Of a stretch of 64,000 nucleotides of DNA, positions 11,568 to 32,947 are shown in pieces. How positions within the stretch are numbered: the first letter of the stretch is position 1; every line of letters starts with the position of its first letter. The DNA lies in the NCBI GenBank assembly GCA_045644145.1, contig JAZRGK010000080.1, positions 65,407-129,406 of the forward strand, read 5' to 3'. Source of the stretch: Candidatus Flemingiibacterium sp. (GTDB lineage: Bacteria > Bacillota > Clostridia > Oscillospirales > CAG-272). The notes beneath the pieces were generated by a model. That model saw only the letters and a list, made by a program, of their open reading frames with translations, did not search any database and was not told the DNA's origin. The position numbers were made by a program, and so were the translations under genes.

Positions 11568-11607
11568 ATTCTGCTTGGATATTTCCGTAACAGTGATATT
11601 TGAATCT

Positions 11608-11636
11608 GCCGCAGCAATCGATTGCTGCGGCTTTTG
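11608..11636 (+). terminator. Intrinsic terminator after the MarR-DegV operon
   Basis: Perfect palindrome gccgcagcaatc/gattgctgcggc followed by TTTT. Confidence 0.8.
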
Positions 11637-11748
11637 GTTATGAGAAAAAGACAAGAAATGTAGCAGTTTTATTCGGCGCTGTCATTGACAACGAACACTT
11701 TATCATGGTATAATGAACTTAGAAGAAAATTTTCCCATGGAGGTTGAA

Positions 11749-13077
11749 ATGCCAAAAAAATTTGTTCCCGTATTTATAATGTATTTTGTGATCATGGCAT
11801 TCTCCGTTAATGCGTACTTAGCGGCAGAACATATAGGGAAATTTATTGCTGTCCCCATTTCTCTTTTTTTGCTTATCAATATGTTCGGCGGATATCTGTT
11901 TTTGCAATCTGATTCCAAAAGGCTGAAAATTTGTTTCCACGGAGCAGTGCTTCTGCAGCTTTTTCGGTTGACGCTTACCGTATGCATTGCATATCATGCG
12001 ATTCTGGCGGTCATTCTGCTTCCGGATAACGGACGGGCACTTTTATGGAGTGCGGTTTGGTGCTATCTTTTCGAGCTTGTGCTGTTCTGGAACGGAATCA
12101 TATGTGTTTACCTGACATCCGTACAGCTTGGCATAAAGCAGCGCGTTATCGGAATCGTATGCGGTATGATACCGATTGCAAACCTTATTGCGCTTCGTAT
12201 GATAGTAAAAACGGTCTTTAAGGAAGTTGCTTTTGAAACAGAGAAAGAACGTGTAAATAGGGAGCGTGCCTCGGAACAAATCTGCAAAACCAAATACCCG
12301 TTACTGATGGTGCACGGTGTCTTTTTCAGAGATTCCAACTATTTCAATTATTGGGGGCGGATTCCCGGAGAGCTTTTAAGAAACGGAGCTACTGTATATT
12401 ACGGCAACCATCAGTCCGCGGCATCCGTGGCTGACAGCGCAGATGAGCTTGCAGGACGGATAAAAGAGATTATAAAGGAAACGGGCTGTGAAAAGGTAAA
12501 TATAATTGCTCACTCTAAGGGCGGGCTCGACTGTCGGTATGCCTTGGCACATACGGATATTGCCCCATATGTAGCATCAATTACAACCATAAATACACCC
12601 CATCAAGGGTGTCTGTTCGCGGATTATCTACTTAAAAACATCCCCGAGGGATTAAAAAATAAAGTAGCGGATGCATATAATACCACATTAAAAACATTTG
12701 GTGATGCAAACCCGGATTTTCTTACAGCTGCAGGCGACCTTACAGCATCGGCTTGTAAGGCTTTTAACGAAACCGTAGAGATGCCGGAGGGGGTATTTGC
12801 TCAAAGCTTCGGCTCAAAGCTGAACAGAGCCGGAAGCGGAAAATTCCCACTTAATTTCTCTTACCATCTTGTAAAGCATTTTGACGGCGCAAATGACGGG
12901 CTTGTAAGCGAAAATTCGTTTGAATGGGGCAGCAGATACCGTATGCTTACGGCTCCCGGAAAGCGTGGTATTTCACACGGTGATATGATCGACTTGAACA
13001 GAGAAAATATTGAAGGATTTGATGTGCGCGAATTTTATGTAGAGCTTGTAAGTGAACTGAAAAAATCCGGATTTTGA
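11749..13077 (+). CDS. Membrane-anchored alpha/beta-hydrolase (class-2 lipase/esterase-like)
   Basis: The start was trimmed to the ATG at 11749, after GGAGGT. The N-terminal ~180 aa contain several hydrophobic TM segments. The C-terminal domain has LLMVHGVFF and the nucleophile elbow AHSKGG. Confidence 0.75.
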   Translation: MPKKFVPVFIMYFVIMAFSVNAYLAAEHIGKFIAVPISLFLLINMFGGYLFLQSDSKRLKICFHGAVLLQLFRLTLTVCIAYHAILAVILLPDNGRALLWSAVWCYLFELVLFWNGIICVYLTSVQLGIKQRVIGIVCGMIPIANLIALRMIVKTVFKEVAFETEKERVNRERASEQICKTKYPLLMVHGVFFRDSNYFNYWGRIPGELLRNGATVYYGNHQSAASVADSADELAGRIKEIIKETGCEKVNIIAHSKGGLDCRYALAHTDIAPYVASITTINTPHQGCLFADYLLKNIPEGLKNKVADAYNTTLKTFGDANPDFLTAAGDLTASACKAFNETVEMPEGVFAQSFGSKLNRAGSGKFPLNFSYHLVKHFDGANDGLVSENSFEWGSRYRMLTAPGKRGISHGDMIDLNRENIEGFDVREFYVELVSELKKSGF

Positions 13078-13199: not shown

Positions 13200-14309
13200 A
13201 TGAAAATTATATCCATTGGCGCTCCTGAACTTGTTATGCAGAATCCTGACAGCAGACACGGATATTTTGCATGGCCTACCGCGGCAAGACTCCAGAACGG
13301 TAAGATTGCGGTAGTTGCATCAGGTTACCGTTTGTTCCATGTATGCCCCTTCGGTAAGACTGTAATCTCCTACAGTGAGGATGATGGCAAAACCTATACT
13401 ATTCCGGCACCGGTGTTTGACACACCTCTTGATGACCGTGACGGCGGTATCCTTCCTTTCGGTAAAACGGGGGTTATTGTGACTTCCTTTAACAATACCG
13501 TAGCCGCTCAGCGCGGATGGGCTGAGGGATGGGCAAAGCGCAACAATTTAAAGGACTATGTAGATGCTTATCTTGATACTGTCAAGCCTGAGGATGAGGA
13601 AAAATATCTCGGATCCAGCTTCCGCATCAGTAATGACTGCGGAGTGACATTCGGCCCTATCTATAAGTGCCCCATTTCTTCGCCTCACGGCCCATGCGAG
13701 CTTCCGGATGGAACTATCCTTTGGGTAGGCAGAACCTTCTCTGATGACGGAGAGGCGAATGGCGGTAAGGAGCTTATTAAGGCGTACAAAATAAATCTTG
13801 ACGGAACTTCCGAGCTCGTAGGCGAGATCGAACCTATCTATGTCAACGGAGAGCTTGTAGCCTCCGAGGAGCCGTATGCGTTTGCTCTTGCTGACGGAAC
13901 GATAATTTGCCATATCCGTGCGGAGATCGGCTCACCCAAAAGACTGTTCACCATATTCCAGTCTGTATCCACCGATGGCGGCAAAACCTGGTCGAAACCG
14001 GTACAGCTTCTTGATACGTTCGGCGGTGCGCCTGCGCATATTATGCAGCACTCATCCGGCGCTCTTATTTCCGTTTACGGCGACAGACAGGCGCCCTTCT
14101 ACATCAAGGCTATGATCAGCCTTGACGGCGGCAAGACATGGGATACAGATCATGCGATATACGAAAACGGCATCAGCGCGGATATAGGATATCCTTCAAC
14201 TGTAGAGATGCCGGACGGCTCGCTTCTTACTATCTTTTATGCTGTTCCGGAAAAGGGCGGTACACATCGCACTGTTATTATGCAGCAGAGATGGAAGTTC
14301 GAGATTTAA
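13200..14309 (+). CDS. BNR/Asp-box beta-propeller protein (sialidase-like, no signal peptide)
   Basis: 369 aa. Asp-box motifs SEDDGKTY, SNDCGVTF, STDGGKTWS and SLDGGKTWD. No N-terminal hydrophobic leader. Confidence 0.75.
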   Translation: MKIISIGAPELVMQNPDSRHGYFAWPTAARLQNGKIAVVASGYRLFHVCPFGKTVISYSEDDGKTYTIPAPVFDTPLDDRDGGILPFGKTGVIVTSFNNTVAAQRGWAEGWAKRNNLKDYVDAYLDTVKPEDEEKYLGSSFRISNDCGVTFGPIYKCPISSPHGPCELPDGTILWVGRTFSDDGEANGGKELIKAYKINLDGTSELVGEIEPIYVNGELVASEEPYAFALADGTIICHIRAEIGSPKRLFTIFQSVSTDGGKTWSKPVQLLDTFGGAPAHIMQHSSGALISVYGDRQAPFYIKAMISLDGGKTWDTDHAIYENGISADIGYPSTVEMPDGSLLTIFYAVPEKGGTHRTVIMQQRWKFEI

Positions 14310-14551: not shown

Positions 14552-15667
14552 ATGAAAATCACGACTATCGGCGCTCCCGAAATTATCATGCAAAACCCTT
14601 ACAGCAGACACAAATATTTTGCATGGCCCACGATAACAAGACTTCAGAACGGCAAGCTTGCGGTAATTGCTTCCGGTTACCGTCTTTACCATGTATGCCC
14701 TTTTGGTAAGACCGTACTTTCCTATAGCGAGGACGAAGGAAAAACATGGACTATCCCCGCTCCCGTTATTGATACCGTGCTTGATGACCGTGACGGCGGT
14801 ATCATGACATTTGGCAAGAGCGGCGTGCTTGTTTCATCCTTTAACAATACATTTGCTATACAGCGCGAGTGGGCTAAGGGCTGGGCTGTAAAGATGAACG
14901 TTAAGGAATATGTGGACGGCTATCTTGATATTTCAAATGAGGAAGATCAGGACAAATACCTCGGCCCTACATTCCGTATAAGCAATGATTGCGGTGTAAC
15001 CTTTGGTGACATTCACAAGTGTCCCGTAACCTCTCCCCACGGCCCCTGCGAGCTTAAGGACGGCACTATTCTGTGGGTAGGCAGAATGTTCAGTAAGGAC
15101 AATGCTGTTAATGAAGGAGAAGAAATTCGGTCGTATAAGGTGAACCTTGACGGAAGCTGCGAATATCTCGGCGCTATCGAAAGTATTGAGATAAACGGTG
15201 AAAAGATGCTCTCCTGTGAGCCTCATGCCTTTGCACTTGATGACGGTACGGTTATTTGCCATATCCGAGTGCAGTCTATCCGCAATACGGATCTGATCAC
15301 CTCCAACACATTTACCATATTCCAGTCCATCTCTCAGGACGGCGGAAAGACCTGGTCAAAGCCCGAACAGATTCTTGCAACTCGCGGCGGAGCGCCGGCT
15401 CACATTATGAAGCATTCCTCAGGTGTCCTGATCTCTGCTTACGGTTACCGTGACATGCCTTTCGGCATAAAGGTGATGATAAGTACCGATAACGGCAAGA
15501 CTTGGGATGTTGATCATGACATCTACAAAAACGAAATAAGTCCTGATATCGGCTATCCCGCAACGGTGGAGCTTGAGGACGGTTCGCTACTTACGGTGTT
15601 CTACGCTATCCCTGAAAATGGAATGCCTGCTGTTATCATGCAGCAGAGATGGAAGCTGGAAGCCTAA
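14552..15667 (+). CDS. BNR/Asp-box beta-propeller protein, paralogue of 13200-14309
   Basis: 371 aa and collinear with the upstream protein, roughly two-thirds identical by eye. Asp-boxes SEDEGKTW, SNDCGVTF, SQDGGKTWS and STDNGKTWD. Confidence 0.75.
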   Translation: MKITTIGAPEIIMQNPYSRHKYFAWPTITRLQNGKLAVIASGYRLYHVCPFGKTVLSYSEDEGKTWTIPAPVIDTVLDDRDGGIMTFGKSGVLVSSFNNTFAIQREWAKGWAVKMNVKEYVDGYLDISNEEDQDKYLGPTFRISNDCGVTFGDIHKCPVTSPHGPCELKDGTILWVGRMFSKDNAVNEGEEIRSYKVNLDGSCEYLGAIESIEINGEKMLSCEPHAFALDDGTVICHIRVQSIRNTDLITSNTFTIFQSISQDGGKTWSKPEQILATRGGAPAHIMKHSSGVLISAYGYRDMPFGIKVMISTDNGKTWDVDHDIYKNEISPDIGYPATVELEDGSLLTVFYAIPENGMPAVIMQQRWKLEA

Positions 15668-15770: not shown

Positions 15771-15805
15771 ATTGCGCCTGCGCTTTGCCGCAGGCGCAAT
15801 TTTGC
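15771..15805 (+). terminator. Intrinsic terminator after the second BNR gene
   Basis: ttgcgcctgcg / cgcaggcgcaa stem followed by TTTT. Confidence 0.75.
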
Positions 15806-15832
15806 TTGAAAAAACCGTACGCACGCAATAAT

Positions 15833-15865
15833 ATAATTGACATTGTGTCAATTATATGTTAAAAT
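15833..15865 (+). promoter_or_regulatory. Promoter with a palindromic operator, upstream of the TerB/ATPase/helicase operon
   Basis: TTGACA (15837-15842), 17 nt, TAAAAT (15860-15865). The palindrome ATAATTGACA-ttg-TGTCAATTAT (15833-15855) overlaps the -35 element. Confidence 0.6.
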
Positions 15866-15902
15866 AATATAATACCAAAATATACAGATGGGGGCGAAAT
15901 AA

Positions 15903-17633
15903 GTGGGCGATAAACCGAAAAATATGGCGGATGTTGATAATTTTTGGGATCTCGAATCCCTGCTTCCAAAGAAACGCCCCGTAAATCCGGGTGTCAGACG
16001 GTTAAATACCGATACGGTTGAAATATCCGTAGGCTCTGGCGATATCATTCCGGATAAAACTGCTCCCATACCGCCGCGCCGTGGCTCCGGTGCCATTTCG
16101 GAAATTTCCGGTAAAAAAGATGTGGCGCGCAGGCTTAATGAGCTTTCTATGCGCACAAGATCGGAGGAATATCGCTCAAAGCCTCTTGATCCGTACCTTA
16201 TATACGAGGCGAAGGACAGTCTTATAAGTCGTGTGGAGGTGTCTGCGTGGAGTTCACGCTTTAATTTTTACGAGAACTTCCTATCCGACGCCAAGCGGCT
16301 TTGGGGACGCGCCGGAGCGCCCTGCGACAATGTATCCTTCTTTTCATATGTCCCACAGTATTCACAGCTTAAATACGCACAGCTTAAGTGGTATCTTTGG
16401 TGGCGTGAAAACGTCCGTAACGGCGTATATCTGAAGACCGATTTTTGCTATATTCTTCTTTATATCTACGAGATCATCAACACGCCGGATGTTATGCCGC
16501 CGTCGGAAGGTGTGGAGAAGCTTTGCGATATCTGGCTTAATTATCGCACAGAGCATCGGCGTATTGACAGCTATATGTGCGACTGGCTGTGCGATTATTG
16601 CTTGATTCACGGCGTCCCTTGCCCGTTCAGGCGTCTTGAGCCGATTATTGGCGATATCGTTGAAACGGCAAGCCTTAAGGAATTTTATATTGATATAAGA
16701 AATGGGGACAGTGCAGCGAGGATTCTTGCATATTCCTCTGCCTACGACTGGCATAAGAGCCGGTATGTAACTCCCGAAAATGTGGGGTTGTTTGCCTATC
16801 ATATAAAAGCCGCCTTTGAAAAAGCCTACAGAGAAATACTTTCCGAAAAGGATGACAGCTTGGCAAAAGAATTCCGCATGGAGCGGACTGCATACGACGG
16901 CGCACTGTGTGTATACAGCCTGAAGCGTACCATAGCGGTGGAATATATATCTTATACACGTTCACCGAGATTCAGATTTGCGGTTACGGACATTATAAAA
17001 TACAGCGAAAACCGCATCCGTATGGCGCTTGGCATAAAATCAAGACTTAAGACGGAATCCCTTACGGATAAGCTAAAGGCGTGTCTTGATGCTTACTTTG
17101 ACGAGCATCTTCCGCCGCCCAAAAAGAGCAGGTCATCCGTATGCGCGGGTTCAGAGCCTGTAGTGCACGAATACGACAAGCTGTATGAGCCGGTGACATC
17201 ATCGCTTTCCCTTGAAAATGCACTGGAAATCGAAAAAAACTCATGGAGTACCACAGAAATACTTGTTTCCGCTTTTGATAATACAGGGAAAGTGGAAGCC
17301 CATGCGGAAGCTCCGACGCTAACCGAGGAATTGCCGCCTATACAGCCCACCGCGGAGAACATTTCTTCAGGTTCGGATTCATCCGATGAATTCGAAGCGT
17401 TTGTATCTTCCATTGATGATAAGATGAGAAATACGCTTAAAATGCTTGCAGAGGGTGATGGGCAGGCGCTTGCAAAATCGGCTCAGAAGTACGGCGTTTT
17501 AGTGGATGCTCTTGCTGACATGATAAACGAAGCGGCGTTTGATATTATAGGTGACAGTATTATCGAGGCGGACGGCGGCGCTTACAGATTTATTTCCGAT
17601 TACGAAGGAGATATTAAAAAATGGCTGAAATGA
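15903..17633 (+). CDS. sngA: TerB-N / TerB-C domain protein (Shango SngA-like)
   Basis: 576 aa with a GTG start after GGGGG; an alternative ATG lies at 15924. The central region has a TerB-N-type signature (FFSYVPQYSQLKYAQLKWYLWWRENVRNG...YILLYIYEIIN). The C-terminal ~120 aa are TerB-C-like (FVSSIDDKMRNTLKML...DALADMINEAAFDIIGDSII). Confidence 0.7.
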   Translation: MGDKPKNMADVDNFWDLESLLPKKRPVNPGVRRLNTDTVEISVGSGDIIPDKTAPIPPRRGSGAISEISGKKDVARRLNELSMRTRSEEYRSKPLDPYLIYEAKDSLISRVEVSAWSSRFNFYENFLSDAKRLWGRAGAPCDNVSFFSYVPQYSQLKYAQLKWYLWWRENVRNGVYLKTDFCYILLYIYEIINTPDVMPPSEGVEKLCDIWLNYRTEHRRIDSYMCDWLCDYCLIHGVPCPFRRLEPIIGDIVETASLKEFYIDIRNGDSAARILAYSSAYDWHKSRYVTPENVGLFAYHIKAAFEKAYREILSEKDDSLAKEFRMERTAYDGALCVYSLKRTIAVEYISYTRSPRFRFAVTDIIKYSENRIRMALGIKSRLKTESLTDKLKACLDAYFDEHLPPPKKSRSSVCAGSEPVVHEYDKLYEPVTSSLSLENALEIEKNSWSTTEILVSAFDNTGKVEAHAEAPTLTEELPPIQPTAENISSGSDSSDEFEAFVSSIDDKMRNTLKMLAEGDGQALAKSAQKYGVLVDALADMINEAAFDIIGDSIIEADGGAYRFISDYEGDIKKWLK

Positions 17634-18991
17634 CACGGAAGATACCCAAAAGAATACTCGCGAGCCTGCTTTCTTCCATCTCTGCAGGCGTTGTGCCCCG
17701 TATGGGTGCACCCTATATCGCTATCGGAAGAGGCGAGGAGATCGAAGCTCTGCTTTCCGACTTAGAGGCGGTCAACGGCGGCGGCGGCTCTATGCGCTTT
17801 ATTATCGGTAAATACGGAAGCGGCAAGAGCTTTCTTATACAGCTTGTGCGCGGTTTTGCTATTGAGCGAGGATTTATAACGGCTGATGCAGATCTTTCGC
17901 CTGAACGCCGTATCTGCGGTTCAAAGGGTACGGGGATTGCTACCTACCGTGAGCTTATACGCAATCTTGCATCCAAATCCGCCCCCGAGGGCGGTGCGCT
18001 TGGACAGATAATCGGCAAATGGCTGTCGGATTTACAGTCTGCGGTGGCAGCGGAGGGGTATGAGATCGGAAGCGAAGCTTTTATTAAAGAGCTGACAGCA
18101 CGCATATATACCTGCACAAGGGAGCTTGAAGCGCAGATCGGCGGTTTTGATTTTGCCACTGTGCTGACTAAGTATTACAGAGCATACATGGACGGTGACG
18201 AGGAGAAAAAATCCGCCTGCATGCGTTGGCTCAGAGGGGAATATTCCAACAAGACGGAGGCCAGAAATGCTATAGGTACGGCTATCGGCGGCATTGTTGA
18301 CGACGATAATTGGTATGAGTATATCAAGCTGCTTGCGGTATTTTTCAGGAAAATCGGTTATCGGGGATTGGTGGTGTTCATTGACGAGTGCGTGAATCTC
18401 TACAAAATAGCAAACCGAATTTCCCGTGAAAACAACTACGAAAAGCTTCTTTCCATGTTCAACGATACGCTTCAGGGAAAGGCAGAGGGGCTTGCGCTGA
18501 TTTTCGGCGGCACACCTCAGTTCCTTGAAGATACAAGACGCGGACTTTTCTCCTACGAGGCCCTGAGAAGCCGACTTTCGGACGGACAGTTCCAAAAGGA
18601 GGGCGTAAAGAATCTTATCGGTCCCGTAATTCGTCTGCGCCGGCTTTCGGACGATGAGCTTTTTGCTCTTGTTGCCAGACTTACCGCGCTGCATGGTCAG
18701 AACTACTCTTGGGAACCTCGCGTTACAAATGAAGACATGCTTGCTTTTTTAAAGCTCTGCCTTGACAGGGCAGGGGCGGATACTATGATAACTCCCCGCG
18801 AGATCATACGGGACTATGTGACCGTACTAAATATTCTGATGCAGAACGAGAACTTGTCTTTTGCCGACATTGTTGGCAGTGGAATCGTAAGGCTTTCCCA
18901 TGGCGAGGATGAGGAATCGGGGCTTATCGCCGATACAGCGGATAAGTCCGGCACAGTAACGGATTTTTCAGCTATTGATATCGAAATATAA
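17621..18991 (+). CDS. sngB: DUF2791/BrxC-BrxD-type P-loop ATPase (Shango SngB-like)
   Basis: 456 aa. Walker A GKYGSGKS at aa 63-70 and Walker-B-like VVFIDE. The start overlaps the upstream stop by 13 nt. Confidence 0.7.
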   Translation: MAEMTRKIPKRILASLLSSISAGVVPRMGAPYIAIGRGEEIEALLSDLEAVNGGGGSMRFIIGKYGSGKSFLIQLVRGFAIERGFITADADLSPERRICGSKGTGIATYRELIRNLASKSAPEGGALGQIIGKWLSDLQSAVAAEGYEIGSEAFIKELTARIYTCTRELEAQIGGFDFATVLTKYYRAYMDGDEEKKSACMRWLRGEYSNKTEARNAIGTAIGGIVDDDNWYEYIKLLAVFFRKIGYRGLVVFIDECVNLYKIANRISRENNYEKLLSMFNDTLQGKAEGLALIFGGTPQFLEDTRRGLFSYEALRSRLSDGQFQKEGVKNLIGPVIRLRRLSDDELFALVARLTALHGQNYSWEPRVTNEDMLAFLKLCLDRAGADTMITPREIIRDYVTVLNILMQNENLSFADIVGSGIVRLSHGEDEESGLIADTADKSGTVTDFSAIDIEI

Positions 18992-19119
18992 GCATTTCAA
19001 CGGATGGTTGTAAAATTAAGAAAGGATATACTTCCATGAATAAGGCTGTTGAATATATGAACAAGCGATGGCTCGGTGAGCGTGTACGCATGCCGGACGA
19101 AGTTGCTGCGGTATAGACT

Positions 19120-21387
19120 ATGGCAGATAATGACATTTTCTACCGATTCTCGCCGTTTATCCAGGATTTTATATACAGAAACGGTTGGCAGGATCTGCGC
19201 GCGGTACAGCTTGCGGCGGCAGAGGTTCTTTTTGACACAGACAAAAATCTGCTTATCACATCATCTACCGCATCCGGAAAAACCGAAGCGGCATTCTTCC
19301 CCATAATCTCGCAGATGTATGAGGATATGCCGAGGAGCGTAGGAGTGCTGTATATTGCGCCTTTGAAAAGCCTTATAAACGACCAATTTTCAAGACTCGA
19401 TGAGCTTCTTGATATGACGGGGATTCCGGTCTTCCATTGGCATGGTGACGTTGCCGCGTCCCATAAAAATAAGCTTCTTAATGAGCCGAGAGGAATACTT
19501 CAGATAACTCCGGAGTCCCTTGAAAGCATGCTTATGAACCGCTCCAACGATTTTGTGCGGCTTTTCGGCGATCTCCGCTATGTGGTTATCGACGAAATAC
19601 ACACGCTTACCGGCACGGACAGAGGAAATCAGATAATTTGTCAGCTTGTGCGCCTTGCAAGGCTTATCGGACACACGCCAAGGCGAATCGGTCTTTCCGC
19701 TACTGTAGGCGATGCCGTACTTGCGGCAAAATGGCTTGGGGGCGGAACGGATAGGGAAACGGCTGTCCCCGAAATAATCGAGGGAAAAGCAAAATGGCGG
19801 CTTGGGATGGAGCATTTCTTCATTCAAAATGACAGCTTTGACCAAAGTAGTGATTTCTCTATGGGAGATGTATCGGAAGAATCAGGTTCGCCTGAGGCTG
19901 AGCCGTCCCACGGCAGGGTAGAGATAGACTCTGGGTATGAGTATATCTACGACTGCGCCAAAAATAAAAAGGCGATCATATTTTCAAACTCCCGTGAGGA
20001 AACGGAATACGTTACCGCCACTATGCGACAAATTGCGGATAACCGTCACGAGCCTGACATTTTTCTCATTCATCACGGAAATCTTTCCGCTTCAATACGG
20101 GAAGAAGCTGAAACCAAGCTGAAAAACGATGATGAGAAATACGTTACCTGCGCCACGGTCACAATGGAGCTTGGTATAGATATCGGAAAGCTTGAGAGGA
20201 TCATACAGAATGATGCCCCAAACTCGGTTTCAAGCTTTCTCCAACGCCTTGGACGCTCCGGCAGACGTGAAGCACCGCCGGAAATGATGATGGTGTTCCG
20301 CGAGGAAAATCCTCTGCCAAATGCTCCGCTTCCCCAGCTTATTCCTTGGGGATTCTTAAGAGCTATCGCTATTGTTCAGCTCTATATAGAGGAAAAGTTT
20401 ATTGAGCCGCCGTCGGAAAAGAAGCTTCCCTTCAGTCTTGCTTTCCAACAAACCTTAAGTATACTTGCGGCGTCAGGCGAGCTGACGCCAAAACGTCTTG
20501 CGGACACTGTTCTGTCCCTGCCGGCGTTCTCACGCATGGATAGAGAAGACTACCGCACACTTATTATCAGCATGCTTCAGAACGATTTTTTAGAGCTTAC
20601 AGAAGAAAAGGGGCTTATAATCGGTCTTAAAGGCGAGCGGCTTATAAACAGCTTCAAATTCTATGCCGTATTCAAGGACAGCGAGGATTACACCGTTCGC
20701 TGTGAATCGGATGAGATCGGTACTATAACCACACCGCCGCCGGTGGGTGACAGATTTGCCCTTGCAGGACGTGTGTGGGAGGTGGAGGAGCTTGATATAC
20801 TGAGGAAGCTTATATATGTAAAACCGGTCAAGGGAAAAATGGAGGTTTCATGGCCCGGCGACTATGGGGAAATACACACGCGGATCTTGGAGCGCATGCA
20901 CCGCATACTGTGCGAGGATACCGTATATCCGTATCTTAAACCCAATGCGCAGCGCCGACTTGAAATCGTGCGGAATCTTGCTCGCAACACTGGGCTTACT
21001 TCACATTCCATCCTACCGCTTGGGGGATACACATGGTGTCTGTTCCCGTGGCTTGGTACGCGTTCCTTCCGCACACTGCGCAAATTCATTATGAATAATG
21101 CGGCGCGCTTCAAGATAACAAATATTGAGTTTGAGGGCTGTTACTATATGATGTTCAAAATGGAATCGGGCAGTGATTACGGACTTATCAAGGGGCTGTG
21201 TGACGTAATGGAGCGCGAGGGTATTGATAGATCGAAGCTTGTGAATGTAAACGAAATGCCGGTGTTTGAAAAGTACGATGACTATATTCCGGCAGAGCTT
21301 CTTCGCCGTCAGTATGCCGAGGATAAGCTGCGCACGGATGAAATAAGGTTTCGTCTGCCGCAGATACTTTCGGAATACGAGGATTAA
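19120..21387 (+). CDS. sngC: Lhr-like DEAD/DEAH-box (SF2) helicase (Shango SngC-like)
   Basis: 755 aa. Motif I SSTASGKTEA, motif II VVIDEIH, motif III LSAT, motif VI QRLGRSGRR, plus a long C-terminal domain. Confidence 0.8.
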   Translation: MADNDIFYRFSPFIQDFIYRNGWQDLRAVQLAAAEVLFDTDKNLLITSSTASGKTEAAFFPIISQMYEDMPRSVGVLYIAPLKSLINDQFSRLDELLDMTGIPVFHWHGDVAASHKNKLLNEPRGILQITPESLESMLMNRSNDFVRLFGDLRYVVIDEIHTLTGTDRGNQIICQLVRLARLIGHTPRRIGLSATVGDAVLAAKWLGGGTDRETAVPEIIEGKAKWRLGMEHFFIQNDSFDQSSDFSMGDVSEESGSPEAEPSHGRVEIDSGYEYIYDCAKNKKAIIFSNSREETEYVTATMRQIADNRHEPDIFLIHHGNLSASIREEAETKLKNDDEKYVTCATVTMELGIDIGKLERIIQNDAPNSVSSFLQRLGRSGRREAPPEMMMVFREENPLPNAPLPQLIPWGFLRAIAIVQLYIEEKFIEPPSEKKLPFSLAFQQTLSILAASGELTPKRLADTVLSLPAFSRMDREDYRTLIISMLQNDFLELTEEKGLIIGLKGERLINSFKFYAVFKDSEDYTVRCESDEIGTITTPPPVGDRFALAGRVWEVEELDILRKLIYVKPVKGKMEVSWPGDYGEIHTRILERMHRILCEDTVYPYLKPNAQRRLEIVRNLARNTGLTSHSILPLGGYTWCLFPWLGTRSFRTLRKFIMNNAARFKITNIEFEGCYYMMFKMESGSDYGLIKGLCDVMEREGIDRSKLVNVNEMPVFEKYDDYIPAELLRRQYAEDKLRTDEIRFRLPQILSEYED

Positions 21388-21659
21388 CCGCGGCGCTTTA
21401 TCTCTATATCCAGTGCCATCGTTCCGCCTATGGTAAGCAAAAGTGACATAAGTATGTGTTCCATTTCAAGGGCGAATGTACCGTACATGCGTGCCGCATC
21501 GTATGTATCAAGGGATGCTCTTTTAAAAACTGTTGCCACAAGCACAGCCGAAATCGGTGCAAGCAGGCGTGTGAGCATGCGGAATGCGGCAGGCGATATG
21601 CCTTCGAAAAATTTTGCTTTTTGCTGTTTCAATGTTTTGTACCTCATTTTTTGTTTCAT
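21384..21659 (-). CDS. Hypothetical small protein with two hydrophobic segments, convergent on the helicase gene
   Basis: 91-aa ORF whose stop codon overlaps the helicase stop. No clear SD sequence, so it may not be coding. Confidence 0.3.
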   Translation of the reverse strand: MKQKMRYKTLKQQKAKFFEGISPAAFRMLTRLLAPISAVLVATVFKRASLDTYDAARMYGTFALEMEHILMSLLLTIGGTMALDIEIKRRG

Positions 21660-25345: not shown

Positions 25346-25416
25346 TTATGATTTGTGTCTAAAAGACAAGCGCTTAGAAAATGGAAATTTCCGATTTCAG
25401 AGAAAGGAGAGTGCAT

Positions 25417-28400
25417 ATGTACTATCAAAACGAACCGGACGAAACGCTGGTAATGCTTACACTTGCGGGCGAGCAGACGGCATATGAGGTTTTGGTAACA
25501 CGTTATCAGAAGCTTGTGATATCCGCCGCGATGAAGATAACCAAAAATCACTTTATGGCGGAAGATGCCGCGCAGGATGCCTTTGTTACGGCTTGGATGA
25601 AACTGAACACTCTGCAAGATACGAAAAAGTACGCTTCATGGGTGTGTCGTATAGCTAAAAACTGTGCTCTTAATATGATAAGCAGATACCGCAGCTTCCT
25701 TCCGCTTGATGTGGTGGATAACCTAAATATTTTCGACGACAGTTCGGATAACCCGGCAGAGTTGTATGCACTGTCCGAGGAACGAAATGAAGTTGATAAA
25801 ACCGTTGAGCGGCTGCCGGAAAAGGTACGTCAGATCATTCATCTGCATTATTTTGAAGACCTTTCTATCGCGGAGATCGCAGACCGGATGCGAATTTCCG
25901 AAGGAACGGTCAAGTGGCAGCTTCACGACGGCAGAAAACGAATCAGAAAGGAACTTTGCGCTATGAATGAAAAGTATAACGATACTCTTGTACAGCGTGT
26001 TATGAAAAAGGTTGAAGAACTGAAATTATGGCAGGTCAAGAACGATAAAAGCGGTTTTGAAAAGGTATACAAAGAAGTGCTTCGCGAGGTAGAGGAGCTT
26101 CCCGAATGCAGAGAAAAACAGCACGCGCTTGCCGATGTCCTGATGCGCGGTTGGTGGTGGCTTCCCGGCAAAAAGAACGATGCTCTGTTTTCCCGTATTG
26201 CGGATGCCGCCATGGAAGGTAAAAACGAGGAGGTAATGACCTTTATCGTCACCCGTGAGGATTCAAAGGTATACGGCAGTGCGAAAGTGAATTTCATCCG
26301 TGACAAGCAGATTCCCCGTCTTGAAAAAGCAGGCTTTATTAAGGCTCTCGGACGCGAATGGTTCTGGCTTGGCAACGAGTTGTTCCGAGAGGGAAAAGTA
26401 GAGGAAGGTCACGCCGCATATGACAAGGTTGAAGAAATTCTCACAAGCGGAGATGCTTATCGCATACTCGTGCCTTATGCAAGAAAGATGGAAGAAGTGC
26501 TCTCCACACGCTACAAGGATACGGGCAAAGAACGATATCGTATCGGCGGTTCGGCAGAGGAGTACCGCATAATTGACGGAAAACTGCACTACTTCTCCGA
26601 GCAAGGCTTTGGAGAAGGCTGGGTTGCCTCGGTAAATTATAAGAGTGCCCAGATTTTCCGCAATGCATCAAGCTGCGACGGACAATTCTTTGCGGATATT
26701 GCAGTGGGCGAAACTCACACCGGCACTGACGGTACAAAGCTTTCCTATATTTCGGACGGTGAATCGCTGAACACGCCTGCAGGCAGATTTGACGGATGTC
26801 AGCTCTGGGAAGTAAGACGTTGGACGGACACACAAAAAATCGTATGCAAAACCTACTACAAAGAGGGCATCGGCATTGTTCGCCAGGAGCTTACAACTGA
26901 TGGAGCGACCGACAGCCATACGCTTAGTGCATATGAAATTAAAGGCGGAGAGGGACTTCTTCCCCTTTTGCCAGGCAATAGTTGGGAATACGCCCCATCG
27001 TATTCCCTAGATACGATTTCGTCCGAACTTAAAATCACTGTGGATTTTGTTTGTGATGAACGAATACTTGTTTCTCATTTCGAAAACACCGAACGACTTA
27101 AGTACGACGAAAATTCCTGGCTTGATGCCGTGCAAGAAATTGCCAATGAATACTGCCGTGAGAATGGCGGAAACTGGCGTATATGCGACGTTTATCCTGC
27201 CATGGAGCGTGCGGAGCGGCTTGCCGTGACTCCTATGGAAAAGGCACACACCAAAGCGGCGGTATCTACGGTACGGAGAATACTCGCTACAGACCCAACC
27301 TTCAATCCCGACCACACTGCCACGGGACATTGGAATTTCTTCTGCAGGACATACATCAGAAAGAAGTCCGATTCTCTTATTCTTACCGATTATAACTCCA
27401 GATGGAGTTTCGAGTGGAAAAATACCGGCAGCATGGGCGCAGCAGAGGATCCTATTCTGTATAACGATATCTACGGTATTCTCCGGGATGCGGCAAACTG
27501 CCTCTGGTCTGACGAATGGCGAATCGGCGCATCACCTATCGTGGAATATGACAGGTACGGAAGCGCAATCAAAACGCAGATCACCTGCGAGGATGGCGGA
27601 ACAGTCACGACGAAGGCCGGAACTTTTGAAAACTGCTTCAAGCTTTGCCTTGATATTAGCGGGATGGGCGACGGACTTACCTACCGAGGTGGCAAGAAGG
27701 CTTACTATTTTGCCGATGGGATCGGAATTGTCCGCACCGAGAACGAATTTTGCGGCGGTGCAAAGACAGCAGTTTACGAGCTTACCTCATACGAGGGTGT
27801 GGGCGAGGGATTCATGCCCATAGCGGACGGTCTTGTTCGTCGATATGATGCCCTCGACCTAACTGACGGCTTTGTGGGTGCTGTAGAATACACCTATGCG
27901 GCGGATGAGGACGGCGACATCGTTGTATTTGCTGACCGCACAGGTATCCGCGAGCTTCCGCCGACGATCACGCAGTATAGCGCGATTCAGGGCGAGATGA
28001 TTGAACAGCAGCTCTGCGATGCCGGAAAATGGCAAGAAGGTCAGCTTATGTATGGGGTGAACAACTTCCATCTGATACTTCATCTTCTTGGAAGACCCAG
28101 CCACAATATTCACACCGCTAAAAGATCGGTGGATGTACAGAGCTTCAATATGAAAATCATGGAGCTTCTGGGTGAAAACGGCGAGGTGCCGCCTGCGTGG
28201 TACAGCCTCTATTCATGGACTGCACTTATCAGATCCGCTGCCTTATTCGGCAACGGCGAAAAGGACGAGGGATACCGCAGTCTTGAAACAGCCATTGAAT
28301 ACGCCGAAAAAGCTGCCGCTTTTAATAAAGGTGCGCTTCTTGATGCCGGCAACAGTCATGTTCTCGGTGGAGTCAAGTATGTGAAGGGATGCGGCAGAAT

Positions 28401-28581
28401 CCAGCTTCCGAACGGAAGGTGCGAGCCGATCAACTATGACTATTGGATGGACTCATATGACAAGCTCATTTTTGACGTGCTGAACGCCCCCCGCGGATGG
28501 TCATGGTTTAATTCCGCACGCGGGGAGGACCGGTTCAAGGAATGCATTGAGCGCGCAGGTAAAATAGGCCAAAAGGCATAA
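25417..28581 (+). CDS. Sigma-70/ECF-like factor fused to a ~870-aa C-terminal domain lacking a TM segment
   Basis: Trimmed to the ATG at 25417, after AAAGGAGAG. Region 2 (AEDAAQDAFVTAWMKL) and region 4 HTH (LSIAEIADRMRISEGTVKWQLHDGRKRI) lie in the first ~190 aa. The remainder has no hydrophobic TM segment and contains an internal duplicated module. Confidence 0.8.
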   Translation: MYYQNEPDETLVMLTLAGEQTAYEVLVTRYQKLVISAAMKITKNHFMAEDAAQDAFVTAWMKLNTLQDTKKYASWVCRIAKNCALNMISRYRSFLPLDVVDNLNIFDDSSDNPAELYALSEERNEVDKTVERLPEKVRQIIHLHYFEDLSIAEIADRMRISEGTVKWQLHDGRKRIRKELCAMNEKYNDTLVQRVMKKVEELKLWQVKNDKSGFEKVYKEVLREVEELPECREKQHALADVLMRGWWWLPGKKNDALFSRIADAAMEGKNEEVMTFIVTREDSKVYGSAKVNFIRDKQIPRLEKAGFIKALGREWFWLGNELFREGKVEEGHAAYDKVEEILTSGDAYRILVPYARKMEEVLSTRYKDTGKERYRIGGSAEEYRIIDGKLHYFSEQGFGEGWVASVNYKSAQIFRNASSCDGQFFADIAVGETHTGTDGTKLSYISDGESLNTPAGRFDGCQLWEVRRWTDTQKIVCKTYYKEGIGIVRQELTTDGATDSHTLSAYEIKGGEGLLPLLPGNSWEYAPSYSLDTISSELKITVDFVCDERILVSHFENTERLKYDENSWLDAVQEIANEYCRENGGNWRICDVYPAMERAERLAVTPMEKAHTKAAVSTVRRILATDPTFNPDHTATGHWNFFCRTYIRKKSDSLILTDYNSRWSFEWKNTGSMGAAEDPILYNDIYGILRDAANCLWSDEWRIGASPIVEYDRYGSAIKTQITCEDGGTVTTKAGTFENCFKLCLDISGMGDGLTYRGGKKAYYFADGIGIVRTENEFCGGAKTAVYELTSYEGVGEGFMPIADGLVRRYDALDLTDGFVGAVEYTYAADEDGDIVVFADRTGIRELPPTITQYSAIQGEMIEQQLCDAGKWQEGQLMYGVNNFHLILHLLGRPSHNIHTAKRSVDVQSFNMKIMELLGENGEVPPAWYSLYSWTALIRSAALFGNGEKDEGYRSLETAIEYAEKAAAFNKGALLDAGNSHVLGGVKYVKGCGRIQLPNGRCEPINYDYWMDSYDKLIFDVLNAPRGWSWFNSARGEDRFKECIERAGKIGQKA

Positions 28582-28732: not shown

Positions 28733-30415
28733 GTGAACAGACAAGATGCCGAAAAGATTATAATTGAATATCTCAAACCCATATTCGGCTTTACGCTGAA
28801 GCGGTGTAAAAACGCACACGATGCGGAAGATCTATCGCAGGATATTGTATTAAAGGCGTTCCGCGCACTTCTCATCAAAGACGATATCGGGGATGTCAGC
28901 AAATTTATTTGGACGATTGCTCATAATGCGTTCAGCAATTACTATAGAGATGCCGCCAAAAGCATCATAGGTGTATCGATTGATGAGGTGGCAGAGATAA
29001 TTGCTGATCCCGACTCGATGTTGGATAATGACGATAATGCTGATACCATACATAGATTGCAGAGCGAAAAAGCGTATCTTTCCAAACTCCAACGCAAGAT
29101 CGTAATTGCATACTATTTTGAAAATCGCAAGCAAGCCGATATTGCTAAAGATTTGAATATTCCTCTCGGAACGGTCAAGTGGCACTTGTTTGATGCGAAA
29201 AAAGAATTAAAACGAGGTATAGATACTATGAGAAAAACAAGTGAACTGAAATTTAATCCCATCAAATTCCACACATACGGTATTAACGGTTCCATTGGAA
29301 CAAAAAACTTAGATGAATTCTTTCGGTCTACTTTGGCACAGAATATTTGCTATTGCGTACGCAATGAGGCAAAAACAATCAATGAGATTGCCGATGATAT
29401 TGGTGTTTCGCCTGTTTATGTGGAAACTGAGGTTAATTTCCTTGAAGAGTACGGCTTTTTGGAGGAGCAAAGGGACAAGTATATCGTCAATTTCATAATC
29501 AGTGAACCAACTGCAGAACTGCTCACAATGCAGGATGCGATGTATAAGAAAGCCGCAGGATTGTTTGCAAATGAGCTTTACGATGAACTGATTGCATCGG
29601 GACTGATTGATCATTCCGATATTTTGTGTGGACAGACCGATAAACTGATCACCTTGACGGAAAGTACTCGTGCGGATCAAAACTTCCTTCTGTGGTCGCT
29701 TATCCCGTATATTGCGGCAGAATCTGGCGAAAAATTGGTGGAAGATAAAATTTCCTTTGAAGAGGTTGCGACTGTTCGTCCAGATGGTGCTCATAATATT
29801 TGTCACGCAGCCGTTGTCCCGGATAATGTGGAGTTGCCAGAAGATTATGTATATATGAAAAACTGGTGCGGGCCGTTCAGATATCCGAACAAACAGTATT
29901 CCGAGGGGAACATTTCGTTTTGGCAGCTTGATACTGAGTGGTCGGGACGAAGAATGAGTGTCAGCAAAATGTACGCAGAGAATGTTGATCGAGTTTTAGC
30001 TCTCGAAAAGCGTGAGGATGAGGACGGTCTGCTTTCAAAGGATGAGTACGCTTGGCTATCAGAGCTTGGTTATATCAAAACCAACGGAGATTATGACGGA
30101 CACTTTAAGTCCTCTTGGCAGATCGTAACGCTTACGAGCAAGGAAATCAAAAATAAACTCCTTGCAGTTGGCGAGAATATTAAGATAAAACACAAGGATA
30201 AATTTGATGCAATCAAAGCACATTATGTCGAAGCGGTACTCGATTCCGTGCCGGCTCATCTACGCCGGGTAAAGGAATATGAGCTTCAGTTTCTATTCCA
30301 CGCTGACGGATGGTTCCTACTTCACTGTATTGTTGCACTTTTGAGCAACGGCAAGCTAAAGCAGCCTACCGATGGGCAAAGGAAAGTGCTTACAACGCTC
30401 ATTGTTCAAAATTAA
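28733..30415 (+). CDS. Sigma-70/ECF-like factor fused to a ~370-aa C-terminal domain containing an extra winged-helix-like segment
   Basis: 560 aa with a GTG start after GAGGT. Region 2 (AEDLSQDIVLKAFRAL) and region 4 (ADIAKDLNIPLGTVKWHLFDAKKEL). A downstream HTH-like segment reads TINEIADDIGVSPVYVETEVNFLEEYGFL. Confidence 0.75.
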   Translation: MNRQDAEKIIIEYLKPIFGFTLKRCKNAHDAEDLSQDIVLKAFRALLIKDDIGDVSKFIWTIAHNAFSNYYRDAAKSIIGVSIDEVAEIIADPDSMLDNDDNADTIHRLQSEKAYLSKLQRKIVIAYYFENRKQADIAKDLNIPLGTVKWHLFDAKKELKRGIDTMRKTSELKFNPIKFHTYGINGSIGTKNLDEFFRSTLAQNICYCVRNEAKTINEIADDIGVSPVYVETEVNFLEEYGFLEEQRDKYIVNFIISEPTAELLTMQDAMYKKAAGLFANELYDELIASGLIDHSDILCGQTDKLITLTESTRADQNFLLWSLIPYIAAESGEKLVEDKISFEEVATVRPDGAHNICHAAVVPDNVELPEDYVYMKNWCGPFRYPNKQYSEGNISFWQLDTEWSGRRMSVSKMYAENVDRVLALEKREDEDGLLSKDEYAWLSELGYIKTNGDYDGHFKSSWQIVTLTSKEIKNKLLAVGENIKIKHKDKFDAIKAHYVEAVLDSVPAHLRRVKEYELQFLFHADGWFLLHCIVALLSNGKLKQPTDGQRKVLTTLIVQN

Positions 30416-30470: not shown

Positions 30471-32066
30471 TTAATTCATATAATCATAGTAAAAAACAAA
30501 TCCGAACCAATTTCGATTTACGAAATAGTTCGGATTTGTTACGTTTGGTGACCCTAAAGAGTCCACAGACGAACACTCGGAGAGTGCGCTTTCTACGTCA
30601 GAAATGGTAATATTTACACCTATATGACCGCCTCCGGAGGGGTCAAACACGATTTTTGCATGATCATCGTACAGGTATATGGCTACAATAAAGTTTTTTA
30701 TAAGATTTTCACGGTATTTTGGATCGTCTATATCACCGTTCCGGAACGATAGGAGAAATGTCTTTAGTTCTTCTACATTGATTTCCGGTATATTAACGGT
30801 AAGCTCGGCAAGCTGTGCCTTCACTTTTGCCTGGTCAGATTCAAGCTCAATCAGCCTGCTCTTTGTGGTATCTGTGAGTACACCTGCCTCGATGGCACGC
30901 ATAATGTTTTGTATTGCCACATCGTTGGCTTTTTTTCGTTCTTCAAGAATCACGATGTCCGGGTTATCCCGTTGCTCATCGAAGTACCGTGCAACGCCTT
31001 CGGCAATCTGCGTAATAACCGGCTCATTCAAGATGTGCTGGTAAACACCCATTGCTACATCGTATTCGAGCTGATCTCGTCGGACGTCTTTCTTTCGGCA
31101 TCCTCCGCCGGATCGTTTATCTTTGCAAGCGTAATAGTGGTGTTTTGTTCCTGATTTGCTTGTACCGCACATTCCTATCATCGGCTCTCCGCATTCACCA
31201 CAGAAGAGAAGTCCCGTAAGAAGGTATCTTTCGTTGGTGCGGCTTTTGCCGCGCGGATTCTTTTTGTTTTTCAAAATATACTGTACCTCCTCGAATTGAT
31301 GTTTTTCGATTATTTGAGGCATACCACCTTCGACGCGGATTCCGTCGAATATGTATGTACCCGTGTAGCGTTCATTTGATACGATAGTAGCGAAGCTGTT
31401 CTTGCCCCATTCGTTGCCACGACGATTTTTTATACCTCTCGCGTTGAGATCGGCGGCGATACTCATAAACATCTCGCCTGCTTCCACGCGAGCGAATATT
31501 TCTTTAACTATTGGGGCGGTGGTTTCGTCTATTACGAAGTGCCCGGCTTTGTCCGATTTATACCCATACGGCGCAGGACCGTTTGCGCGGCACTTCATAG
31601 CGTTGTCGGCTTGGTTGCGCTTTATATCCTCGCTCAAATTCTCGCTGTAAAACTGATTGAGATTCATCATTGTACGCCTTGCGAATCTGCCGGAGGCGTT
31701 ATCCGCAAAGGCTTCTTTAGCGTAGAAGACTTGTATGCCGTATTTATCCATTTCGCTTTCAAATATGAGCGCGTTGACCATATTTCGGGCGATACGGCTT
31801 GATTTGTAAGCGATTACAGCGGCGAAGACACCTTTTTCAGCATCCCGGCGAAGCTTCTGATACTGCGGTCGGCGGTCGGAACGTCCCGATACTGCGCTGT
31901 CTGCATAGACGCCGACAACAGAAAGATTATTGGCAGCGGCATACGCCTTGCACTCTGCAACTTGCTGTTCTATGGATTCTTCGCGCTGATTATGCGATGA
32001 AAAGCGAGCATATATCACGGCAGGTATTTCGCCGAGAGGGGATATTTGCTTGTTTGTTCGCGCCAT
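30471..32066 (-). CDS. Large serine recombinase (prophage integrase)
   Basis: Trimmed to the ATG at 32066, after AAAGGAG. Resolvase-type N-terminus (AVIYARFSSHNQREESIEQQ), recombinase domain, zinc ribbon (CGECGEPM...HHYYAC) and a coiled-coil region. Confidence 0.9.
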   Translation of the reverse strand: MARTNKQISPLGEIPAVIYARFSSHNQREESIEQQVAECKAYAAANNLSVVGVYADSAVSGRSDRRPQYQKLRRDAEKGVFAAVIAYKSSRIARNMVNALIFESEMDKYGIQVFYAKEAFADNASGRFARRTMMNLNQFYSENLSEDIKRNQADNAMKCRANGPAPYGYKSDKAGHFVIDETTAPIVKEIFARVEAGEMFMSIAADLNARGIKNRRGNEWGKNSFATIVSNERYTGTYIFDGIRVEGGMPQIIEKHQFEEVQYILKNKKNPRGKSRTNERYLLTGLLFCGECGEPMIGMCGTSKSGTKHHYYACKDKRSGGGCRKKDVRRDQLEYDVAMGVYQHILNEPVITQIAEGVARYFDEQRDNPDIVILEERKKANDVAIQNIMRAIEAGVLTDTTKSRLIELESDQAKVKAQLAELTVNIPEINVEELKTFLLSFRNGDIDDPKYRENLIKNFIVAIYLYDDHAKIVFDPSGGGHIGVNITISDVESALSECSSVDSLGSPNVTNPNYFVNRNWFGFVFYYDYMN

Positions 32067-32106
32067 GTATATGCTCCTTTCTGTGTTGTGCGGGAGAGGG
32101 GATTTT

Positions 32107-32823
32107 TTACACCCTACCAATAACACGACCAACGCATTTGATTGTGTCGTATTGGCTGAATTTAATATCCTTATACTTTTCATTGAGGGAGATCAGACGG
32201 TCTACCCCATATTTTTTTATATAGCCATCGCCGTTGACGATGTATACGCCGACTTCGCCCTCATCGAGCGCGTCACATTGTTCAACAAGCACTACGTCGC
32301 CGTCATAGTATATTGGTTCCATGCTGTCGCCCGATATGGTAAGCGCGAAATCCGCTTGACGAGCTTCGGGAGAATCGGGAACAGATATAGTTTCCCATGC
32401 ATTGTTATCATCAAGCATAAAACCGATTCCGGCAGATACCTTATACAAGCTGTGGCGAATGGAATACATGGGTTGCTTTTTCTCCGGCTTTATAGGTGTT
32501 ATGCTACGAGTGTATTCTTCGTCAAGAACCATACCCATTATCTTTTTGCCGTGTGCATCAAGCATACGGTATTTTTTTATCATCTCGCGTTCTGAAGCGC
32601 TTAATATATCGCCCTTCATTGATTCTATTTCATCTTGATACAAATAGTTTGCATCACATTTTAATGCGGCGAAGAGCTTTATAAGAATATTCTCATTAGG
32701 TGAGCTTATTCCGCTTTCATAGTTTCCTATGCTCCCTTTTGAAACACCAACCAATTTAGCAAGCTCGGGCTGTGTGTAACCGAGTTCTTCCCGGCGTTGC
32801 TTGATTCTTGTGCTTAAACTCAT
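32107..32823 (-). CDS. CI/LexA-like phage repressor (XRE HTH + S24 peptidase)
   Basis: Trimmed to the ATG at 32823. HTH region RREELGYTQPELAKLVGVSKGSIGNYESG. Candidate Ala-Gly cleavage site (VSAGIG). S24 catalytic motif SGDSMEP and a downstream Lys (GYIKKYG). Confidence 0.85.
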   Translation of the reverse strand: MSLSTRIKQRREELGYTQPELAKLVGVSKGSIGNYESGISSPNENILIKLFAALKCDANYLYQDEIESMKGDILSASEREMIKKYRMLDAHGKKIMGMVLDEEYTRSITPIKPEKKQPMYSIRHSLYKVSAGIGFMLDDNNAWETISVPDSPEARQADFALTISGDSMEPIYYDGDVVLVEQCDALDEGEVGVYIVNGDGYIKKYGVDRLISLNEKYKDIKFSQYDTIKCVGRVIGRV

Positions 32824-32918
32824 AATTAAAACCTCTTTTATCATTGAAGTTACAACACGATTATAACACACACGAGAGTACAAGTCAAGAAAAATCTCAA
32901 AAAACTTGTAAAAAACTC

Positions 32919-32947
32919 TTGACATCACAAGAAATATATGCTATAAT
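32919..32947 (+). promoter_or_regulatory. Consensus early (lytic) promoter in the CI/Cro intergenic switch
   Basis: TTGACA (32919-32924), 17 nt, TATAAT (32942-32947). It is flanked by repeated AAAAAACTTG motifs (about 32899 and 32960) and the inverted repeat ACAAGT/ACTTGT. Confidence 0.7.

Follow-up and report, generated by a model that had tools for sequence, protein, structure and literature searches.

In a stretch of 64,000 nucleotides of contig JAZRGK010000080.1 (assembly GCA_045644145.1, positions 65,407 to 129,406 of the forward strand), called the window below, three adjacent co-directional genes were found whose identity as a Shango (SngABC) locus can be stated with great confidence. 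With nearly the same confidence, the sequence comparisons indicate that the locus is a complete and apparently functional Shango anti-phage system, located in the chromosome of a Candidatus Flemingiibacterium-like gut Clostridia bacterium. It is a textbook example of an already catalogued system and not a new kind of system. The first-pass annotation of the window had proposed a Shango-type candidate here, and this call was borne out, since the PADLOC models of SngA, SngB and SngC were the top matches of the three genes, in this order.

The three open reading frames (ORFs) were as first annotated in their lengths (Table 1), their common direction and the 13-nucleotide overlap between the first two, which was confirmed in the ORF listing and is kept in relatives. 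Each of the PADLOC matches to the Shango models spans nearly the entire model. The first protein matched SngA with an E-value of 2.4e-48 (residues 80-575 against model positions 63-527 of 528) and had no next-best match, the second matched SngB (9.8e-167, followed by BrxD with 2.8e-48) and the third matched SngC (4.6e-241, model positions 5-713 of 720, followed by BrxHI with 3e-126). The TerB_N-like core and the TerB_C-like tail proposed for the first protein were both recovered by Pfam above the cut-offs (TerB_N 6.7e-20, 72 bits against 25; TerB_C 7.2e-10, 39.7 bits against 26.3). In the case of SngB the assignment as a P-loop NTPase held, as the BrxC_BrxD family (PF10923, formerly DUF2791) was matched with 1.3e-153 across positions 1-411 of 414, and both the Walker A motif (GKYGSGKS, residues 63-70, with the lysine at position 69 as annotated) and the Walker B motif (VVFIDE, 251-256) are intact. 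SngC is a superfamily 2 (SF2) helicase, as had been claimed, with Pfam matches to DEAD and Helicase_C, a sub-threshold match to the Lhr winged-helix model and the motifs ASGKTEA (51-57), DEIH (158-161), SAT (193-195) and QRLGRSGRR (375-383); the 42 aligned homologues show no variation in helicase motifs I, II, III and VI. All the features of Shango that are readable from sequence, namely the matches to the three models, the intact motifs and the adjacent co-directional genes, are therefore present in the locus.

NCBIfam holds no Shango models, and its BrxD and repair-helicase equivalogs were matched far below their cut-offs. The BrxD equivalog NF033438 gave 162.7 bits (1.4e-47) with SngB against a cut-off of 350, and the repair-helicase equivalogs gave 196.7 bits against 850 (TIGR04121), 196.1 against 849 (PRK13767) and 118.3 against 1496 (PRK09751) with SngC. 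Assignment of SngC to the Lhr/ligase-associated or MrfA repair helicase families was rejected on the basis of these missed cut-offs and of its context, which is SngA-SngB and not ligase/metallophosphoesterase or MrfB. A ter (tellurite-resistance) operon was likewise rejected, because the first gene carries TerB_N and TerB_C only, the TerB domain proper (PF05099) not being among the Pfam matches of SngA, and because the neighbours are BNR-repeat, alpha/beta-hydrolase, TIM-barrel and NrdD genes. The scans with Pfam, PADLOC and NCBIfam revealed no nuclease, toxin, pore or membrane effector domain in SngA, SngB or SngC, and none of the three contains a segment resembling a transmembrane (TM) helix.

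What the first-pass annotation said of the literature on Shango was accurate. The system was named and validated in Pseudomonas aeruginosa PA14 (Johnson et al. 2023, PMC10250203), where it caused a 10-100-fold drop in plating efficiency and gave strong protection in liquid culture, and it was found in parallel in Escherichia coli (Millman et al. 2022). According to a preprint of September 2025, the working mode of TerB-domain defence proteins "is still unclear".

SngA is a soluble TerB_N/TerB_C protein with long disordered linkers and a winged-helix-like C-terminus. Its AlphaFold2 model (mean predicted local distance difference test score, pLDDT, 79) contains a confident alpha/beta core between residues of approx. 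95 and 405, which includes the TerB_N signature; the segment FFSYVPQYSQL (146-156) lies within the Pfam TerB_N match (137-238). Disordered stretches were predicted at residues 30-68, 409-419 and 462-493. A short N-terminal helix bears the motif D-x-F-W-D-L-x-x-L-L-P, which is retained in relatives at about 32% identity, and the C-terminal 70-80 residues weakly resemble winged helix-turn-helix (wHTH) DNA-binding domains (Foldseek probability 0.98, E 0.29). Sequence searches of the PDB with SngA and SngB gave nothing significant. SngA was the least conserved subunit in all 42 of the 42 loci compared, with a mean identity of 47.5% as against 74.1% and 75.6% for the other two, and its folded core alone is also less conserved (56.5%). 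The fast evolution of SngA, beside SngB and SngC conserved like core enzymes, points to SngA as the specificity determinant of the system.

The other two proteins resemble a known pair. The best Foldseek match of the SngC model was the Mycobacterium smegmatis Lhr core (5v9x, E 1e-20, 826 columns), followed by MrfA and Hel308, and the order of its secondary-structure elements is RecA1, RecA2, wHTH, beta-barrel and an alpha+beta C-terminal domain (CTD). The same order of elements has been described for BrxHI in a comparative study of 2026 (PMC12839542). There BrxD is classed among the AAA+ ATPases of ORC/Cdc6 type; it forms a tight pair with BrxHI and is proposed to be its loader or activator. 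A defence-specific clade of SF2 helicases has been described that unites SngC itself with BrxHI, DruE and DpdJ (PMC12278908). Since SngB matches BrxD and SngC matches BrxHI, the loader proposal can be carried over, and by this analogy SngB-SngC probably works like BrxD-BrxHI, the ATPase loading or activating the helicase.

A working scheme can be outlined, each step of which, taken singly, is tentative and somewhat more doubtful than probable. SngA would act as a sensor and scaffold recognising a phage cue, which could be a protein of the phage or a perturbation, of DNA or close to the membrane, as the genome enters or early in replication. It would then license ATP binding and oligomerisation of SngB, an ATP-driven switch or loader in the manner of ORC/Cdc6-type loaders, and SngB would load or activate SngC on the phage nucleic acid. 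SngC would move in the 3'-to-5' direction on single-stranded DNA, unwinding or stripping replication, recombination or RNA:DNA hybrid intermediates, so that phage replication would be stalled directly and the cell would not be killed. The identities and the intactness of the components were read from the window, while the interactions of the partners, the polarity and the substrate follow by extrapolation from what is known of Lhr and proposed for BrxD/BrxHI. The BrxD-BrxHI-like dyad, the full Lhr-core architecture and the lack of a nuclease favour a loader-plus-translocase over DNA cleavage or abortive infection, and both the lack of an effector domain and a direct, non-suicidal block would fit the modest protection reported for PA14 Shango.

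The layout of the locus is given in Table 1. The annotation of a bounded operon behind one promoter stood in its first part, as a terminator was found on the left and a convergent gene on the right, where no terminator could be found downstream of sngC. The single promoter fared less well, given the 128-nucleotide gap between sngB and sngC and the second promoter-like site near the end of sngB, which, judged by its sequence, could drive the following gene stub and sngC independently. The predicted promoter of sngA matches the consensus in 11 of 12 positions and is the best sigma-70-like site of the region. It is followed by a GGGGG Shine-Dalgarno sequence (15890-94) and by the GTG start, which aligns with an ATG or GTG start in the relatives. 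A promoter block of about 75 nucleotides 5' of sngA is kept in about 25 genus-level relatives, while the flanks farther upstream all differ and none of the relatives compared shows related sequence beyond about 15826 on that side; as far as these alignments indicate, the block travels together with sngA. We infer from the overlap of sngA and sngB that the two are translationally coupled.

Table 1. Features of the Shango locus and of its surroundings, in window coordinates.
Feature	Position	Strand	Remarks
BNR-repeat gene, first paralogue	13200..14309		sialidase-like, tandem
BNR-repeat gene, second paralogue	14552..15667		sialidase-like, tandem
Terminator hairpin of the upstream BNR-repeat gene	15772..15800	+	GC-rich hairpin, then T-run; left boundary of the locus
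12-bp perfect inverted repeat ATATAATTGACA-ttg-TGTCAATTATAT	15831..15857	.	overlaps the -35 element of the sngA promoter
sngA promoter (predicted)	15837..15865	+	TTGACA 15837-42, 17-nt spacer with TG, TAAAAT 15860-65
sngA	15903..17633	+	576 aa, GTG start, TerB_N and TerB_C domains
sngB	17621..18991	+	456 aa, BrxD-like AAA+ ATPase, ORC/Cdc6 type (PF10923)
Internal promoter-like site (putative)	18762..18789	+	TTGACA-16-TATGAT, 11/12, inside the 3' end of sngB
26-codon ORF, YbaK-type gene stub	19036..19116	+	ends 3 nt before the sngC ATG
sngC	19120..21387	+	755 aa, Lhr/BrxHI-like SF2 helicase
Small 2-TM protein gene	21384..21659	-	91 aa, tail-to-tail with sngC, 4-nt overlap with the sngC stop
ECF sigma-factor fusion gene	25381..28581		1066 aa
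ECF sigma-factor fusion gene	28733..30415		560 aa
Serine integrase (large serine recombinase) gene	30471..32183	-	prophage start, 9.1 kb past sngC
Helix-turn-helix repressor gene of the prophage	32107..32928	-	follows the integrase

The palindrome at the sngA promoter may be an operator. It is perfect in the window and in one relative (L003) only, near-perfect in four others (L001, L002, L005, L023) and missing from the rest, so that a conserved operator was rejected and the element is subclade-specific. There is no regulator gene within the sngABC operon, and no cognate regulator of the palindrome was identified.

The distribution of the system was followed by scanning GTDB species representatives with SngB, which gave 80 related loci, and by comparing the window proteins by tblastn. 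All the loci were seeded by SngB or by a linked gene, and the census is therefore biased as to Shango-less genomes of the clade. The nearest loci (75-86% SngB identity) belong to Ca. Flemingiibacterium and to other metagenome-assembled genomes of Oscillospirales type from gut and rumen. As the first-pass annotation had expected of a genuine system, the trio co-occurs as a block elsewhere: the order sngA-sngB-sngC was found in most of the loci whose length allowed a judgement, across differing contexts and phyla, including Bacteroidales, Victivallaceae, Treponema, Dehalococcoidales and Galliscardovia (Bifidobacteriaceae), although the SngA relatives in other phyla are detectable through the TerB_N core only. 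A tight sngA-sngB-sngC trio is also carried by the Clostridium estertheticum plasmid pCF002-344, and relatives of SngB occur in 697 plasmid records, mostly of conjugative enterobacterial plasmids. No relatives of SngB were found in a scan of IMG/VR or by tblastn in phage genomes, and phage carriage was rejected at the sensitivity of these scans.

The locus had been described as part of an accessory stretch, and this description did not hold. The right flank beside sngC is kept throughout the genus-level relatives (the small convergent gene, a xylose-isomerase-like TIM-barrel gene and mostly the anaerobic ribonucleotide reductase gene nrdD), while the left flank always differs. When the search was seeded with the TIM-barrel protein, all homologues of at least 60% identity with an informative left flank were found to adjoin Shango, and only the distant L091 and L092 (TIM identity 47-48%) were without it; a metagenome scan with the same flank gene returned a single locus, on a contig already in the set. 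In the 14 loci possessing all five genes the mean pairwise identities were 86% for NrdD, 84% for SngC, 83% for SngB, 71.5% for the TIM-barrel protein and 58.6% for SngA, and the distance correlations between Shango and the flanking genes (0.5-0.8) were similar to those between the flanks themselves (0.41-0.63). Such co-divergence at one site argues for vertical co-inheritance and not for a recently acquired island. Neither a tRNA integration site, nor flanking repeats, nor a structured RNA (Rfam) was found at the locus, so nothing there points to the recent insertion of a mobile element. Shango in this clade consequently looks positionally conserved and vertically inherited, as judged by these alignments.

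Several points weigh against the reading of the locus as a defence system operating by the scheme above. The conservation of SngB and SngC, equal to that of NrdD at a fixed site, is atypical for a defence system, and together with the fixed position it leaves room for a role in genome maintenance. The core of SngA has no significant structural match in the PDB (Foldseek, best E 0.29), because of which the argument for a sensor role comes wholly from evolutionary rate and architecture, and part of the divergence of SngA is inflated by its disordered linkers. The idea of membrane surveillance put forward in the literature is not supported here, as SngA, SngB and SngC have no TM-like segments, though peripheral membrane binding would still be compatible with this. 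The SngC model is mediocre (pLDDT 67), and the polarity and the substrate assigned to SngC are those of Lhr. No published mechanism of Shango was found in the later literature.

The conservation data bear most directly on the possibility that SngABC has been domesticated for housekeeping genome maintenance or stress response (R-loops, stalled forks, DNA damage), with defence being secondary or absent. Besides the single chromosomal site shared by all genus-level relatives, the near-NrdD identities of SngB and SngC, which exceed that of the TIM-barrel protein, and the Shango-flank correlations equal to the flank-flank ones, it would be consistent with the lack of any defence island, tRNA, repeats or mobile-element genes beside the locus and with the role in DNA repair of Lhr and MrfA, the helicases whose solved structures come closest. 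However, the fixation in the clade may be overstated by the way the loci were seeded, the same family has been validated as anti-phage and occurs in the plasmid records mentioned, and sngC was lost in some relatives, which is unlike an essential housekeeping function. The fast evolution of SngA is as seen in sensors of variable targets, and the cut-offs of the NCBIfam repair helicases were missed widely (e.g. 196.7 against 850 bits). We therefore regard domestication as quite unlikely, and the locus as an anti-phage Shango system.

The second alternative concerns the junction between sngB and sngC, a slot in which insertions and breakpoints recur. In the window the gap contains a 26-codon ORF that retains the Shine-Dalgarno sequence, about 19 N-terminal codons and the last approximately 4 codons of a gene of the YbaK-type aminoacyl-tRNA editing family (PF04073), and it is, by this alignment, an in-frame internal deletion of that gene. 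The intact 156-aa gene is present at the junction in L001 (about 11392-11862), L002, L018 and L022. In about 10 genus-level relatives there is no insert and the gap is about 13-20 nucleotides, while other loci contain a roughly 340-aa CBM9-like protein with a signal peptide (L007-L010), a GNAT acetyltransferase (L020, together with PadR and DUF2812, and L089; the two copies are 60% identical) or larger inserts (L030, L034). In six more distant relatives (L037-L040, L046, L051) unrelated genes come directly after sngA-sngB, and a stretch of about 9 kb contains no sngC. PADLOC gave no defence-model match among the inserted genes, and they were rejected as known defence components. The helicase gene is thus separable, since variants with sngA and sngB only exist and foreign genes are tolerated between sngB and sngC.

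One could therefore suppose that the system of the window is crippled or decaying, the deletion scar having uncoupled or silenced sngC. The 128-nucleotide gap with what is left of a gene that relatives possess intact, the absence of a Shine-Dalgarno sequence of its own before sngC, and the relatives which lost sngC after sngB are in line with this. However, none of the three ORFs is truncated and none of their catalytic motifs is damaged, and the deletion is in frame: the strong Shine-Dalgarno sequence of the stub and its native stop codon just before the sngC ATG were kept, and with them the layout that re-initiation requires. Since sngC lacks a ribosome-binding sequence of its own, the stub plausibly preserves the translational coupling, and sngC is probably translated by re-initiation after it, the stub acting as a coupling upstream ORF. 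The promoter-like site just upstream offers a further means of expression, and SngC is 87% identical to its relatives with tight junctions, without any sign of relaxed constraint. Decay of the system is thus very unlikely, and an intact Shango operon is preferred. A fragment of type 2 BREX (Pgl) in place of Shango, suggested by the matches of SngB to BrxD (PADLOC 2.8e-48, NF033438 1.4e-47) and of SngC to BrxHI (3e-126), is hardly credible, as the Shango models score far higher (9.8e-167 and 4.6e-241), the BrxD equivalog stays below its cut-off (162.7 against 350 bits), PglX, PglZ, BrxC and PglW were not found among the neighbours by Pfam and PADLOC, and the overlapping TerB_N/TerB_C gene preceding the pair is the hallmark of Shango.

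The small gene convergent with sngC codes for a member of a family of about 76-91 residues with two hydrophobic TM segments and the conserved polar motifs ...YDAARL...EMEH...GGAL..D..., for which no Pfam or PADLOC match was obtained. With a custom hidden Markov model (HMM) it was detected directly after sngC in 27 loci, and it stays with sngC where the TIM-barrel gene is displaced (L002, L022, L085, L089). The same HMM did not find it in the more distant Shango loci. In the Shango-less L091 a 75-aa gene of like layout lies beside the TIM-barrel gene, in which the custom HMM finds no sequence similarity. The small gene is probably a mere neighbour rather than a fourth Shango gene. The alternative picture, in which Shango of the Ca. 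Flemingiibacterium clade has become fixed in the chromosome as a module that is inherited vertically and has gained clade-specific additions, i.e. the 2-TM protein and the cargo slot between sngB and sngC, is unlikely. If it applied, the 2-TM protein might tether the soluble SngABC complex at the membrane or signal to it there, and would then supply the link that the idea of membrane surveillance lacks, and the junction cargo (YbaK-type, GNAT, CBM9-like) might represent accessory effectors or hitch-hikers on a defence promoter.

On the left, the locus is preceded by genes for a MarR regulator, DegV, an alpha/beta hydrolase and the two paralogous BNR-repeat proteins, and on the right the small gene is followed by the TIM-barrel gene, nrdD and two genes for fusion proteins of extracytoplasmic function (ECF) sigma factors. 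None of the neighbours matched a defence model in the Pfam and PADLOC scans. No signal peptide was noted in the BNR-repeat proteins, and their genes do not recur on the left, the variable side, of any related Shango locus. In L089 a DarT-Macro (DarTG) toxin-antitoxin defence pair (10942-12856 of that locus) lies directly after the Shango-flanking TIM-barrel gene, which suggests that in some lineages defence genes can build up at this site. The two ECF-sigma fusion genes sit between nrdD and a prophage and encode N-terminal sigma-factor domains with long C-terminal extensions, one of them with a DUF3108-like segment.

A resident prophage at a distance of about 9 kb had been annotated, and the serine integrase gene indeed lies at that distance past sngC. 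After the integrase and repressor come the genes for terminase, portal, major head, tape-measure, baseplate and tail fibre, which extend to at least 63 kb, and the right end of the prophage is near or beyond the end of the window. The co-resident prophage would be a natural case of self-tolerance for Shango.

The locus is a well-supported example of Shango from a lineage of gut Clostridia that is uncultured or little studied, and its use is mainly that of annotation. Taken alone, it makes the mechanism of Shango no more testable than the homologues already cloned. Its mildly unusual aspects are the clade-level fixation, the separable helicase with the cargo slot and the small membrane-protein neighbour. 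Three comparative observations may aid work on the mechanism, namely the fast evolution of SngA, the BrxD-BrxHI-like dyad and the separable sngC.

Among the known systems, Bunzi (BnzA) and Dionysus (DinB) share with the present locus the Ter-family domains and the suspected roles in sensing or membrane surveillance. They differ in having TM proteins or pore-forming effectors of their own, in contrast to the TM-free proteins described here, and SngA has TerB_N and TerB_C and not the TerB domain proper. The Lhr core (PDB 5V9X) and MrfA/YprA (PDB 6ZNP) are the best structural and sequence matches of SngC over its whole length, including RecA1, RecA2, the winged helix and the CTD, but the identity is only about 16-18%, and these helicases are stand-alone or repair-operon enzymes without TerB_N/C protein and BrxD-like ATPase partners. 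The BrxD-BrxHI dyad of type 2 BREX (Pgl) is closer, being likewise a tightly linked gene pair that codes for an ORC/Cdc6-type AAA+ ATPase and an Lhr/Ski2-like helicase with wHTH, beta-barrel and Lhr-CTD-like domains. In the window this pair has a TerB_N/TerB_C partner instead of the Pgl and BrxC components, so there is no methylation self-marking.

The closest counterparts are the Shango systems of PA14 and E. coli, which consist of the same TerB_N/TerB_C protein, DUF2791/BrxD-like ATPase and Lhr-like DEAD/DEAH helicase in identical order and likewise have no nuclease and toxin domains. The copy in the window belongs to a gut Clostridia host, has a very divergent SngA and holds a gene stub at the sngB-sngC junction. 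While the others are found in a variable defence hotspot such as cDHS1 or on a plasmid, the present one is chromosomally fixed and apparently vertically inherited.

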